In this document: positions 5,180-60,800 of the stretch, in pieces | How the letters are laid out: every line of letters begins with the position of its first letter | Position numbering within the stretch: position 1 is the first letter of the stretch | NCBI GenBank assembly: GCA_951406725.2 | Contig: OX597837.1 | Location: 11,966,001-12,030,000 of the forward strand | Direction of reading: 5' to 3' | Source of the DNA: Octopus vulgaris | Taxonomy: Eukaryota | Length of the DNA stretch: 64,000 bases | Position numbers and translations under genes: made by a program | Notes under the pieces: model-generated | Database searches by the model: none | Told to the model about the DNA's origin: nothing | Seen by the model: the letters and a program-made list of their open reading frames with translations, nothing else

Positions 5180-5520
5180 AATATATATATAGTTACAGAG
5201 ATGTACTTGCATAGCAAGTGACTTAATCTGAGATCGTGTGCTGGAACGAAAACAGTTGCAGCGTTGAAGGTGTTTATAAGCCATTTAAGAAACACACAAA
5301 AACCGTTAGATTCACTTCAACATTTAAATTTAATTTGTCAAAATATTTTCGTCGCTTTGAGACCGCGACCTGTTAGCACGATATTTTTGTCAGTGAACAG
5401 GTGGCGGTCTCAAAGCGACGAAAATATTTTGGCAAATTAAATTTAAATGTTGAAGTGAATGTAACGGTTTTTGTGTGTTTCTTAAATGGCTTACAAACAC
5501 CTTCCACGCTGCAATATATA
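5180..5520. mobile_element. Fold-back, Penelope-like-terminus element in (TA)n
   Basis: Inverted arms 5256-5374 and 5396-5514, flanked by (TA)n, with a hammerhead-like core. Confidence 0.6.
5386..5436 (+). ncRNA. Putative type I hammerhead ribozyme, G3:C8 core variant
   Basis: Stem I tttgtca/tggcaaa; core GTGAACA; stem II gtggc..gcgac (gtcgc in the inverted arm); GAAA; palindromic AATATT; UUU cleavage triplet. Confidence 0.55.
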
Positions 5521-5871
5521 TATATATATACACATATATATATATGTATGTATGTGTGTATATGTGTATGCATGTATGTGTGTGTGTGTGCGTGTCTGTG
5601 CTTGTGATTGTCCTCCACCACTGCTTGACAACGAATGTTGGTTTGTTTACATCCCTGTCACCTAGTGGTTTGACAAAGGAAGCAGAATAAGTACAATGCT
5701 TACAAAAATAAAACTGGAGTTGATTCATTAAACTACAATTCTTCAAGGCATTGCCCCAGCATGGCCACAGACCAATGGTTGGAAAAAGCAGAAGAATAAA
5801 AGAATACATTCTCTGCTTTGGTCTTATGTTCAAGGCATGAGAAAGCTTGAGTTTACATGAGAAGGCCTAAC

Positions 5872-6137
5872 AGACCTGGTAGAAACAGCAGCCAAATCTC
5901 CCTCAAATCACACCTTACTGTCTTATGTATGTATATATATATGAGCCAATGAGGGGGACCTCTACATGGTAGCTAGACCTGGTAGAAATAGCAGCCAAAT
6001 TTCCCCCAAATCACACCTTACTGTCTTATCTATGTATATATGTATGTATGAGCCTATGAGGGAGACCCCTACATGGCAGCTAGACATGGTAGAAATAGCA
6101 GCCAAATCTCCCTCAAATCACACCTTACTGTCTTATC
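5872..6137. repeat. ~105-bp tandem triplication
   Basis: agac(c/a)tggtagaaa(c/t)agcagccaaat...tcacaccttactgtctta occurs three times. Confidence 0.8.
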
Positions 6138-6639
6138 TTTCTGCTACTTGGATATAGGTCTTATATTCGTCTAAAAAAACTTTCCTGTCACACACTCACG
6201 CACACACACACACACACACACACGCACCCTCACACACACACGCGCACACACACACACACACTCACACACACGCACGTTAGCTTACAATTTTATTTATATA
6301 TTTGCGTGTCTATGTGTTGAAAGAGGAAGTGGGAGGCAGAGTGAAAGAATGACTCACTACAGTAAGTGAATTACTATCATTTTATTCGTTGCCCACTGTG
6401 TGTGTGTGTTTGCGTGTGGTGTAAACCAGACTAAGAAAAGCATTTGACACACACACCAGAATGTGAGTTTTCTGTAAATTTTGCTTAATTGGAGTTTAAA
6501 TTTTAAAAACTGGACCTGGCATGACGCGATGCATTGTACTCTCAAAAATGCTAGGTAAATTGTAATTGAAGAAATCCTATATTGTAGATTTGTATAACTC
6601 CCAAAGGGAGGCAGATAAAATCTGCCTTTTATAATAAGA

Positions 6640-7037
6640 GATATATATATATATATGTATGTATGTATGCATGTATATATATGTATGTATGTATGCATGT
6701 ATATATATGTATGTATGTATGCATGTATATATATGTATGTATGTATGCATGTATATATATGTATGTATGTATGCATGTATATATATGTATGTATGTATGC
6801 ATGTATATATATGTATGTATGTATGTATGTATATATATGTATGTATGCATGTATATATATGTATGTATGTATGCATGTATATATATGTATGTATGTATGC
6901 ATGTATATGTATGTATGCATGTATATATATGTATGTATGTATGCATGTATATGTATGTATGCATGTATATATATGTATGTATGTATGCATGTATATGTAT
7001 GTATGCATGTATATATATGTATATGTATGTATGCATG

Positions 7038-7070
<33 letters not shown>

Positions 7071-56722: not shown

Positions 56723-57163
56723 CTTTAAACATACATACACACATACATACATATATACACACATATATATGTATGTATATTTGCTTTATTAATAAATCTG
56801 CAAAGACATCACAAAAACTGTTACTCAGAGTTTCACAAACGGGAATGTGAAACTCTGAGTTACAAATTTTTTTTTTTATGTCTTCTAAGCTTTATTAATA
56901 ACTTTGATAGGTTTCGACCAGGAAAGGCTGAAACCTATCAACACCACTTTACTCTACCTCCAGTATTTGAGTACTATTTCCCCCCCCCCCCACCTTGTTT
57001 CACATTTATGTGCTTACTCTGGTATATATATATATATACATATATATATATAACATAAGGGGGATCAGCCATCTGAATGTGGCTAGGGTCAGGGTGGGGT
57101 GGTGGGGGTGTTACTGATGCATTTAGCCCCAGGCGAACATCAACTCGCTCAGAGATTTATTAT

Positions 57164-57204
<41 letters not shown>

Positions 57205-57614
57205 TATATATATAAACACATATAAATATATATATATTAGAAGAAATGAGGTACTCAGAAATCTGGATGGTTTTACATTTACAAATTTTTATTAGTATGT
57301 CTCATGTTTTTATAAATCATATATTAGCGCTTGCTTCTACTCTAGTAGACTCTCCAGATCTGAGTACCTTATTTCTTCTAATATATAATACCTGTACATC
57401 ATCTCCAAACCTTTTAATATATATATATATATATATATATTATTTACATTTGATGGATATTTGTCCTCATCTTGTTTGTTGTTAACACAACGTTTTGGCT
57501 GATAAACCCTCCAGCCTTCATCAGGTGTCTTGGGGGAAATTTCAAACTTGGGTTCTCATTCCTAAGGTATTTCTTGATGTTATCATCATCATTATTATTA
57601 TTATTATTATTAAC

Positions 57615-57878
57615 CACAGGCATATGGTATAGTGGTTAAGTGCACGAGCTACCAACCCCAAGATTCGGAGTTCGATTCCAGACAGTGACCTGAATAATAA
57701 TAATAATAACATCATAAAATACCTTAGGAATGAGAACCCAGGTTCGAAAATTCCTCAAGACACCTGATGAAGGCTGGAGGGTACATCAGCCGAAATGTCA
57801 TGTTAACAACAAACAAGATGAGGACAAATATCTGTCAATTGTAAATAATGTAGATAATTCCTCATCTCTTAAATATAC
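57615..57878 (+). mobile_element. tRNA-derived SINE with hammerhead-bearing tail; other copies ~35170-35460 (+) and ~57440-57585 (-)
   Basis: A-box-like tggtatagtgg, B-box ggagttcgattcc, (aat)n, then a conserved body ccttaggaatgagaaccca...cacctgatga...gaggacaaata...cctcatctcttaaata shared between copies. Confidence 0.65.
57759..57804 (+). ncRNA. Putative minimal hammerhead within a tRNA-headed SINE; inverted copy at 57484-57529 has G12 changed to A
   Basis: gacac-CTGATGA-a-ggctgg..tcagcc-GAAA-t-GTC-atgtt. The minus copy reads gacac-CTGATGA...AAAAC-GTT-gtgtt with a perfect stem I. Confidence 0.65.
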
Positions 57879-60800
57879 CCAGGTACTTATTCTTTTTCAA
57901 AACCTGGATTTATTCTATTGGTCTCTTCTGAGGATGTTAACAAACCAACACTGGTTGTTAGGTGGTGGTGGTGGTGAGAGACAAATGTTAACCCACAGAA
58001 AGGCTTTCCTCTGTCAGGTCTTTTTTATTTTTGTTTCTCTTAGTAGAAATGCCGGTCCTTTGCAAACCCATTTTTACTTCTGGGAAGAGGAGGTCTGTCT
58101 TCATCTGGTCTCTTAACCTTTGACCTGCCCAGCATGGGAGGCCCTACAAAATGCCTGTGCTCTGCTGGCAAAGCTCCCAGGGTCCTTAAGGCATACAAGC
58201 CTACACACCACAACATGGTGGATATAACTTGTTGCTCAGCTTAAATTTGTGTAAAGTGATGTAGTTTGGTGTTCAACTTGTGTGCATCCATGCACTTCGA
58301 TGTTAAACTTGTTTTTGTCAAAGAATCTATCACTCAGCTTAAAACAACACAAACAAATATAGTTTGGCCCTCAACTAAAACTTGAATTGCTTAAAACTTA
58401 GCTTAAACTTGTGGAGGCTCATGTAGTTAGGTGCTTGGCTTAAGCACAAGTAGGTTGATGTAGCTTGTTGCTCATTTTAAACTTGTGTAAACTGACTCAG
58501 GTTGGTGCTCATCTTGCATAGGTTTTTGCAGTTAGATCTTAGCTTAAACTTGAGTAGGTTAATAGTTTGGTGCTCAACTCAAATTGAGTAGATTTATGTC
58601 GTTAGATGCTCGGCTTGGCCCTTAGCACACTGCATTTTCCATAGAATTGTTTCCCCTGCCCTGTTACTACAGGGGATAGAACTCATACAGTAACATGATG
58701 CACCTTCAGTGTGCTAAAGGTTAAAAGTGTGTACACTCACACATTGTATTGCTCAGCTTAACCCTTTAGAATTTAAACTGGCCATATCTGACCCAAATAT
58801 TCTGTTTTATGTTCAAACTGACTGTATTTATCATAGAATAATGGTTTCAACTGGCAGAATCGTTAGCACGCCGGGCAAAATGCGTAGCCATATTTCATCT
58901 GCCGTTATGTTCTGGGTTCAAATTACGTCGAGGTCGACTTTGCCTTTCATCCTTTTGGGGTCGATAAATTAAGTACCAGTAATGTACTGGGGTCGATGTA
59001 ATCAACTTAATCCATTTGTCTGTCCTTGTTTGTTCCCTCTGTGTTTAGCCCCTTGTGGGCAGTAAAGAAACAGGTATTTCGTCCGCCTTTGCCTTTCATC
59101 CTTTCGGGGTCGATTTAAATAAGTACCAGTTACGCACTGAGGTCGATGTAATCGATTTAATCCCTTCCCCCAAATCTCAGGCCTTGTGCTTCCAGTAGAA
59201 AGGATTATTATTATTATTATTTTTATTAAGACAAAAAGCTGGCAGAAACGTTAGCACGCCGGGCAAAATGCTTATCGGTATTTCGTCTGCCGTTACGTTC
59301 TGAGTTCTAATTCCGCCGAGGTCGACTTTGCCTTTCATCCTTTCGGGGTCGATTAAATAAGTACCAGTTACGCACTGGGGTCGATGTAATCGACTTAATC
59401 CGTTTGTCTGTCTTTGTTTGTCCCCTCTGTGTTTAGCCCCTTGTGGGCAGTAAAGAAATATATATAATTAAGATTTAAACTGTAAATATATGAATGCGAA
59501 AGAGATAGTTGAATTACTGTAAACCTACTTTTGGGTCACCCTGTACATACGTGTGTGTGTGTGTGTGTGTGTATAAGATGGTCTTTCAGTTTCCGTCTGC
59601 CAAATCCACTGAGAAGGCTTTGGTCAGCCTGGGGCTATAATTGAAAATACTAGCCCAAGGGTGCCATGCAGTGGGGCAGAACTTGGAGTGATTTGGTTAG
59701 AAAGCAAACTTCTTGCCACACAGCCATGCCTGTGCCTATAAAACCAACAGATGGGATGGTCATGACTGGAACACTTTTAGATCATAAATCGGCTGGATAA
59801 GAATCGACCTGGAAGTGCCAAACATTAAACCAAGATAACAACAACAACAACAACAACGCATCAATTATGAAGCATCAAAAAAACATAATTTATTTTAGAA
59901 TAAAAATGTAATTACAAGAAACCGGATGAGGAATGGAATCGCAAAAAATTTACACCATTCCAAATATTTCAAGACAAAAAAAAAAAATATTTTCTGTTTT
60001 ATTTGTTTAATTTAAAAAAAAAAAAATTGGGTAGAAACAAACGAAAAATAAAAAAAAAATAAACAAGATAAACGAACAACAACAATGAAAAAAAAAGAGA
60101 AAAAAATCCAAATGTTTACCATAGATTTATTTTATACATGTGTGTGTGTGTGTGAGTGTGTGTGTGTGTGTATGATAGGTTTGCCTCCACACACAATTTA
60201 CAGCCATTTTATGATTCTTTTTTGTCAGCTAAATCAAACAAGTCTGTGGGGTGGGAGGGTCATGTTTTTGTTTTTTTTTGTTTTCAAACCACTCCCGAAA
60301 TTATACAAACATCAACATAATAATAATAATAATAATAATAATGATAATAATAATAATAATCCTTTCTACTATAGGCACAAGGCCTGAAATTTTTGGGGAT
60401 GGGGAAAGTCGATCACATCGACCCCAGGACATGACTGGTACTTAATTTTTTGACCTCCAAAAGGATGAAAGGCAAAGTCGACCTTGGCGGAATTTGAACT
60501 CAGAATGTAGCGACAGGCGAAATGTCGTTAAGAATTCTGCCTGGTGTGCTAACGATTCTGCCAGCATGCCGCCATAATTAATAATAATAATGATGATAAT
60601 GGTTTCTAATAAAAGCACAAAGGCCTGGAATTCGGAGGAAAGGAGGAACTGTCAATTGGTTGGCACTTTACTTTGTCGACCCCTGGAAAGGATGGAAGGC
60701 AAAGTTCACCTAGGCAGGATTTGAACTCAGAATGCAAAAGGGCCAGAGCAAAACACAGCAATGTGTTTCATCCGACACTTTAGCAATTCTGCCAGTCTAC

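Follow-up and report, generated by a model that had tools for sequence, protein, structure and literature searches.

Hammerhead motifs at the ends of Penelope-like elements and of a putative tRNA-headed SINE in a 64-kb window of the Octopus vulgaris genome

Penelope-like elements (PLEs) that encode an endonuclease (EN) carry hammerhead ribozymes in their pseudo-long terminal repeats (pLTRs), and it is already in print that an invertebrate genome may hold many of them. As described by Cervera & De la Pena (2014, PMC4209133), these are minimal type I motifs with an extra base between positions 9 and 10.1 and a palindromic stem III, present as many families per genome, mostly solo, with opposite-strand pairs 100–700 bp apart and a covariant U3:A8 core. 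Inverted copies, one-sided tails and a (TA)n bias have likewise been published for PLEs (PMC8557442; PMC3846280). The protein of the Poseidon element PAc of Anolis (Frangieh et al. 2024, PMC11167929) is predicted to be dimeric; it nicks and extends both target strands from two internal reverse transcription start sites that bound the tail, and it uses uncut RNA, hammerhead cleavage not being required. For octopus, a 2026 repeat annotation reports 31 recently active PLE families, with no mention of ribozymes in the text available (PMC13282606), and our literature search returned no report of octopus PLE hammerheads. Here, we analyzed 64,000 nucleotides of Octopus vulgaris (GCA_951406725.2, contig OX597837.1, positions 11,966,001 to 12,030,000; the whole stretch is called the window, and coordinates count from its first letter), in which a first-pass annotation made from the letters alone had proposed a hidden population of hammerhead-bearing mini-elements of Penelope-pLTR or retrozyme type, from about six unrelated families.

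We consider it likely that these motifs are hammerheads in the pLTRs of five protein-coding PLE families (A, B, C, D and F) and of one tRNA-headed short interspersed element (SINE; family E) with a Poseidon-type end, and that the short copies are reverse transcripts of uncut RNA, in A and F of its capped 5′ end. The five families are called pLTRs of autonomous elements because their copies continue into PLE open reading frames (ORFs) elsewhere in the genome. The copies are read as coming from uncut RNA because, among 376 copies from families A–D and F, 317 contain the core in full and only four begin at most 2 nt from the predicted cut.

Hammerhead motifs and their cores

The type I layout, a three-way junction with stems I–III around CUGANGA, GAAA and NUH, is present in all six families and at every site named in the first-pass annotation. 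The window holds 11 motifs (1 per 5.8 kb; a second F match, an overlapping palindrome arm, is left out), with core starts at 5393+ (A), 17708+ and 17571− (B), 22328+, 23375+ and 23560+ (C), 31371+ (D), 35341+, 57764+ and 57524− (E) and 42313+ (F). They lie in the following features.

5191..5513: family A head-to-head insertion, TA at each side; left arm 5191–5374 (−), tail end, without core; right arm 5375–5513 (+), short end
5386..5436 (+): family A hammerhead, 7-bp stem I, core 5393–5399 with G3:C8, one stem II mismatch, palindromic stem III; cutting predicted behind 5429
17437..17993: family B head-to-head insertion between TA tracts; left arm (−), short end; right arm (+), tail of ~140 nt
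17492..17577 (−): family B hammerhead, canonical core 17571–17565
17702..17787 (+): family B hammerhead with a long stem II and a palindromic stem III; canonical core 17708–17714; cutting predicted behind 17781
22244..22455 (+): family C solo pLTR, U4C in core 22328–22334, stem I of 3 bp
23292..23495 (+): family C solo copy, core at 23375
23514..23690 (+): family C solo copy, core at 23560, in the TA tract behind the preceding copy
31189..31527: family D head-to-head insertion, core 31371–31377 with A3 and C9 (likely inactive); left arm (−), tail end; right arm (+), short end; the arm junction runs through the stem I complementarity
35170..35462 (+): family E, putative SINE copy 5′-truncated within its tRNA-like head, decayed hammerhead (core 35341), tail end, outside TA
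42185..42372: family F head-to-head insertion; left arm (−), tail end, without core; right arm (+) from the inferred transcription start
42307..42357 (+, right arm): family F hammerhead, canonical core 42313–42319; predicted cut after 42351
57437..57878: family E insertion of two head-to-head arms; the left (−) has the short end, and its core at 57524 lacks G12; the right (+) has a tRNA-like head ~57617–57690, (AAT)n, core 57764, tail end
52906..53161 (−): older D-related relic, an addition to the earlier sites; tail arm and short arm, decayed stems, canonical core 53052–53046

A strict descriptor gave five matches in the window against a mean of 0.05 (maximum 1) in 20 block-wise dinucleotide shuffles, more than chance would give, and 21 matches in a genome sample (80 evenly spaced 10-kb stretches, 800 kb of 2.8 Gb) against 0 and 2 in two shuffles. 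The proposed density of about one motif per 6 kb holds for the window and does not extend to the sample, in which 30 motifs of families A–F correspond to 1 per 27 kb. The window is thus ~4.6-fold richer at equal TA-tract density, and we ascribe the local clustering to PLE ends nesting in each other's TA tracts; ends of different families nested in this way are seen at four loci (L080, L138, L112, L072). Exact-pattern counts in the genome reached 3,354 for A, 7,447 for C, 3,304 for D, 4,000 for E and at least 2,348 for F, with reversed-pattern controls of 0 each. Eight further loci (L105, L099, L268, L227, L263, L197, L357, L370) hold other hammerhead families that were not seen in the window, the first of them adjoining a GIY-YIG fragment.

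The view that the stems differ in sequence from family to family yet stay complementary stands as regards pairing; folds of single copies mostly score weakly, with z below −2.5 in 3 of 10. Rfam, suggested as a check, returned no hammerhead among the 150 of 349 window matches listed, nor among 100 matches for five family A loci. As for the claim of Penelope-type hammerheads in (TA)n-targeted, often inverted insertions, A, B, D and F fit on both counts. Family C adjoins (TA)n and its three window copies show no inverted duplication; family E lies mostly outside TA and is inverted at 57437–57878 and not at 35341.

Only B and F have a canonical, intact core among the window copies, the three E copies being decayed, and the consensus cores are canonical in B, E and F. 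A Watson–Crick pair at 3:8 is kept throughout, as C3:G8 in B–F and as G3:C8 in A. Of the 3,354 family A matches, the first 100 include 93 with G3:C8 and none with C3:G8. Loop II differs among A subfamilies with stems I and II still paired, and in B-related subfamilies the long stem II changes around a constant core and palindromic stem III. The invariant A9 and U4 are kept in A, B, E and F; A9 is not kept in D (C9 in 96 of the 100 copies listed), nor U4 in C (C4 in 65 of the 100 listed), and both changes are expected to impair cutting. The relic at 52906–53161, with its canonical core, and similar D relics at two other loci (L181, L381) suggest that A9C arose within the D lineage.

U4C is reported to lower hammerhead activity (PMC3088659), natural U3:A8 hammerheads are known (PMC3088659; PMC4209133), and a C3G/G8C double change partly rescues activity in vitro (PMC8495972; PMC11167929), including that of the PAc hammerhead; here, an entire family carries G3:C8 by nature. 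Our literature search found no natural G3:C8 hammerhead, although Lunse et al. (2017) or the supplements of PMC4209133 and PMC8557442 may already list such variants. The octopus motifs differ from those described in PMC4209133 in that G3:C8, A9C and U4C are fixed in abundant families, and in that ORF links, a rule of ends and a 5′-end signature could be worked out. A read-through transcript of a palindromic insertion is predicted to form a long duplex (72–86% paired), which would in most cases bury the ribozyme.

Open reading frames behind five families, and the anatomy of family E

In families A, B, C, D and F a single ORF with a reverse transcriptase (RT) and, at the C-terminus, a GIY-YIG domain lies upstream of the pLTR, which settles in the affirmative whether the termini join PLE ORFs elsewhere. 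For A, the starting point was a small piece of endonuclease upstream of one copy, with which 150 scored matches were obtained; all five loci chosen by endonuclease match carry the A hammerhead 1.3–1.5 kb downstream, and one (L394) has an open frame of 1,025 codons with RT motifs, a Cys linker and GIY-YIG (PF01541, E = 1.8e-5). Upstream copies of B lead into an ORF with an RT and a Hydra-type EN, open over 934 codons at one place. The CA-rich untranslated region (UTR) of C leads to a pLTR–ORF–pLTR element (L332/L333; RVT_1 at E = 1e-4, under the Pfam cut-off), and four D loci (L131, L135, L138, L186) run on into RT, linker and GIY-YIG (PF01541, E = 0.0056). For F, one locus (L371) is a tandem of 5.2-kb units in which the ORF starts directly behind the tail, the frame being broken in the copy read. 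Pfam missed most RT and EN domains of these elements, and the window itself contains no PLE protein fragment. Four contig sets aligned to the F pLTR include both plain and fold-back forms, ends and expression not being readable from contigs. In one F insertion (L184:1–6100) the palindrome exceeds 6 kb and consists mostly of CA/TA-rich UTR, which has the look of simple repeat and is element sequence.

Families A, C and D have the DKS/DKG region, a CX2-5CxxC linker and a CCHH GIY-YIG EN, and by these motifs we assign them to Neptune/Nematis-type PLEs, the two clades not being told apart; they resemble these also in their RT and (TA)n targets, with the difference that C yields no inverted copies. 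Families B and F have a DKT motif and an EN without CCHH, with CxxC and CxH flanking the E and N residues, and on motifs as in section 11 of PMC8557442 we assign them to Hydra-type PLEs. Their (TA)n targets and canonical hammerheads also match the Hydra clade (Craig et al. 2021, PMC8557442), as does the CxCX5C linker of F. They depart from it in their long 3′ UTRs, F further in RWR instead of RWK and in the broken frame, and B in lacking linker cysteines and in having an Asn-rich insert. That insert, between RT and EN (L344, L181), resembles the N-rich inserts of rotifer Penelopes (PMC3846280).

The first-pass idea of six unrelated families gives way to kinship, the ORFs of A and D being 48% and those of B and F 46% identical. 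Nor do the data bear out many independent, non-autonomous, ribozyme-processed families: five of the six continue into PLE ORFs, and copies starting near the cut are as rare as stated above. Likeness to metazoan non-LTR retrozymes (PMC7229834; bioRxiv 10.64898/2026.07.22.740005) holds as far as short non-coding type I hammerhead repeats with PLE affinity go; it fails on tandem monomers and cut-site boundaries, neither of which is seen here, and on the direct continuity with ORFs. A separate idea, that A and F are ORF-less fold-back elements, was rejected as an artefact of a top-40 ranking.

Family E is the sole true non-autonomous element of the six, a tRNA-headed SINE and not a retrozyme. It has no ORF; its tRNA-like head contains A and B boxes and is followed by an (AAT)n spacer, by the hammerhead and, last, by a tail. 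The head stands at a fixed 5′ end in most E loci, and its first base is often the center of E inversions. ARAGORN at a lowered threshold found a tRNA-like fold there in 5 of 30 loci; in a separate scan of the window it found no tRNA gene. A flanking repeat of at least 9 bases was found at 12 of 29 E loci in a search for target-site duplications (TSDs), a count for which there is no control set. Three loci were fetched for a downstream sequence that recurs, and in each of them the tail passes into a common stretch; at one locus (L401) this stretch is the start of an ORF, with 40% identity to an RT protein (P0003). The N-terminus of this protein is Poseidon-like, the clade being our assumption from its motifs. 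Judged by sequence comparison, E is probably built on a pLTR whose end it has in common with a Poseidon-type element.

The schistosome Sm-alpha/Sj-alpha hammerhead repeats resemble E in having a tRNA-like head, in E a putative Pol III one, followed by a hammerhead (PMC6765202); E differs in being dispersed, in its PLE short and tail ends and head-to-head inversions, and in the end shared with a Poseidon-type ORF start. The octopus tRNA SINEs OK, OR1 and OR2, known here from a citation, may likewise be compared with E for their tRNA-like head. Our literature search returned no report of a tRNA SINE with a PLE end.

Ends, junctions and how the palindromes may arise

Families A, B, D, E and F each have two 3′ end positions, short and tail, and their inverted, 5′-truncated copies carry the tail at one end only. 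Among 103 head-to-head insertions (one pair per locus, from 108 pairs minus two Helitron duplicates and three second pairs), 95 combine a short with a tail end, none two short ends and one two tail ends; seven have an end that fits neither position. Family C has one end type and single-ended copies, with no inversions seen. The two arms of an insertion tend to match: at site 61 of B, 15 pairs read TT, five CC and none CT, and the non-consensus bases common to both arms amount to 82 of 131 in B (2.8% between insertions) and 46 of 266 in A (3.8% between insertions). Sharing of subfamily variants between arms is far above the between-insertion level in A, B, D and F.

The 5′ ends of short A copies pile up 17–26 nt upstream of the core, and 17 of 18 sampled A singletons stop within ~25 nt upstream of the core. 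Among the first 100 of 440 young-A matches, 64 run on into genomic upstream sequence; of the remaining 36, 27 (a manual count in the match listing) have an extra G that is absent from the element, a G found in none of eight copies that stop three bases further in. Family F has a 5′ stop with an extra G at 6 nt upstream of the core: the preceding base is G in 11, A in one and T, the element's own upstream base, in 88 of the first 100 of 2,348 matches, and G in 44, C in two and A in 54 of a second listing of 100. Only in A and F is this likely cap signature seen. A 3′ splice site as the explanation of the 5′ ends was set aside, the stop lying before the AG and carrying a non-genomic G. Two of the four starts near the cut are D junctions, where stem I itself provides microhomology.

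As a tentative proposal, which we hold to be possible, a dimeric enzyme would copy a single sense mRNA, capped and uncut, from two start sites, priming on each strand of the target and joining the cDNAs at their cap ends. The inverted pLTR and the one-sided tail would arise in one step, with no role for the hammerhead in making the template; within this proposal the swapped G3:C8 pair of A would be natural to an active element, and E would be a tRNA SINE riding a Poseidon element. In the reading held above to be likely, the element protein would nick both strands of an AT-rich target, and each nicked strand would prime one cDNA. Of these two cDNAs one would start at the short site and the other at the tail site, both sites lying just downstream of the hammerhead. 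With the protein on the first pLTR of the message, 130–250 nt would separate the start sites from the cap and a small ORF-less piece would result; with the protein on the last pLTR, a long copy. Each cDNA would extend to the cap or close to it; an additional C templated by the cap would appear as the extra G at the junction, and the cDNA 3′ ends would be joined bluntly, with one or two added bases or through microhomology into a head-to-head palindrome. Self-cleavage would not be needed for the template. PAc offers a parallel in vitro, in its two internal starts defining the tail, its extension of both strands and its uncut substrate; the octopus insertions differ in having one short and one tail end each. 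Our literature search returned no report of twin priming in PLEs.

Several observations weigh against this proposal or against the reading of the copies that underlies it. The PAc start sites are alike on both strands (PMC11167929), so that this assay leaves the one-short-one-tail rule unexplained. Arm concordance is weak in E (25 of 251, against 5.2%), and gene conversion, or a single source active at a time, could also yield it. Copying of an extra base from the cap is known from L1 work, and the cap reading of the G is carried over from that background. The opposite arm could template many of the G cases in F, guessed start sites in D and B show neither pile-up nor G excess (seven and three matches), and C has a G in 1 of 53 at its guessed site. 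Copies were mostly picked by likeness to those in the window, and the partner of E is known as an ORF start only, a long open frame having been looked for and not found.

The main rival keeps the same elements and lets the tail-site cDNA fold back, or antisense RNA prime itself as for rotifer Penelopes, with the endonuclease resolving the second arm at the short site. It would give both the short-plus-tail rule and the arm concordance without a second primer, and it fits the many junctions that lie on small palindromes or microhomology; self-priming is argued for in PMC3846280, and the tail is ascribed to EN-mediated resolution in PMC8557442. What makes it unlikely in our view are several junctions at which both arms begin at the same first base, each with an extra G and with 0–2 bases between them, leaving no room for a loop, even if such junctions are few; against the antisense version speaks the extra G, which suggests that the template was a sense RNA with a cap.

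Two further explanations appear much less probable than fold-back. Independent, non-autonomous retrozyme-like families, excised by their own hammerheads as monomers or circles and inserted by PLE enzymes, would suit the large excess of short, ORF-less over ORF-bearing copies in A and C, the palindromic stem III of most families, through which cofolding pairs two molecules of B or F, and the possibility that solo copies are re-transcribed. We regard them as very unlikely, since five families are pLTRs of ORF-bearing elements, the cut site does not bound the copies, most listed D and C copies carry C9 or C4, and the loci read hold no tandem monomer arrays of families A–F. Slightly less probable still is that the palindromes themselves are mobile, as elements resembling miniature inverted-repeat transposable elements or as re-transcribed fold-backs, and descend from a few masters. 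Such descent would accommodate the one 4-base overlap common to 14 of 23 F pairs and the recurrence of the window's F junction at four other loci (L152–L155). It sits badly with the tail side, which at that same junction differs between L152 and L155 on the one hand and L153, L154 and the window on the other, and with arms that are more alike within an insertion than to same-side arms elsewhere; the near-identical A copies are explained by a Helitron-like carrier.

The family A carrier, neighboring repeats and significance

Other features of the window are the following.

4689..6640 (−): non-autonomous Helitron-like carrier, ~1.95 kb, holding the family A insertion as a passenger; recognized by flank sharing and by 94–97% copies elsewhere
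3693–4292 (−) and 47153–47644 (−): transposase fragments, which we take from their motifs to be Tc1/mariner-like
2775–3173 (+) and 56158–56643 (−): C-terminal fragments, presumably of LINEs by their motifs
25373–26245: a 250-bp unit repeated 3.5 times in tandem (90% identity), with no match to the hammerhead descriptor

The carrier matches at 94–97% over the same span on five other chromosomes, and the listed family A loci have both flanks in common, 30 of 30 aligning ~680 bases upstream. It has a 3′ terminal hairpin and a CTAG end, is inserted between A and T without a TSD, and occurs as dispersed, near-identical copies; the end features are those that define Helitrons. On these features it is probably a young, non-autonomous Helitron-like element, which took up a family A insertion of older date and dispersed it. 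A query with the A center gave 961 first-look candidates, many identical over 147 bases, and the possibility that A is a very young palindromic family was rejected, the 100% copies having flanks in common and riding this carrier. The carrier also sits in a larger duplication (at least 18 kb, 96–98% identical) on three chromosomes (L190–L195; C28, C30, C7).

The elements are thus of a known kind, to which three points are added: the rule of ends with its extra G, the G3:C8 core that marks a whole family with an intact element, and a SINE that joins a tRNA-like head to a pLTR. Among the matches listed, Rfam missed the motifs. The origin of the inverted ends and tails of PLEs and the role of their hammerheads are named as open questions in PMC8557442 and PMC11167929. 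From the rule of ends and the extra G follow two predictions that can be sharply tested, and A and B, young families whose frames are intact, would suit an in vitro system. With a G3:C8 family beside A9C and U4C families at thousands of copies, the genome itself puts the importance of cleavage to the test, and if a tRNA SINE is built on a pLTR, PLEs would count among the drivers of SINEs.

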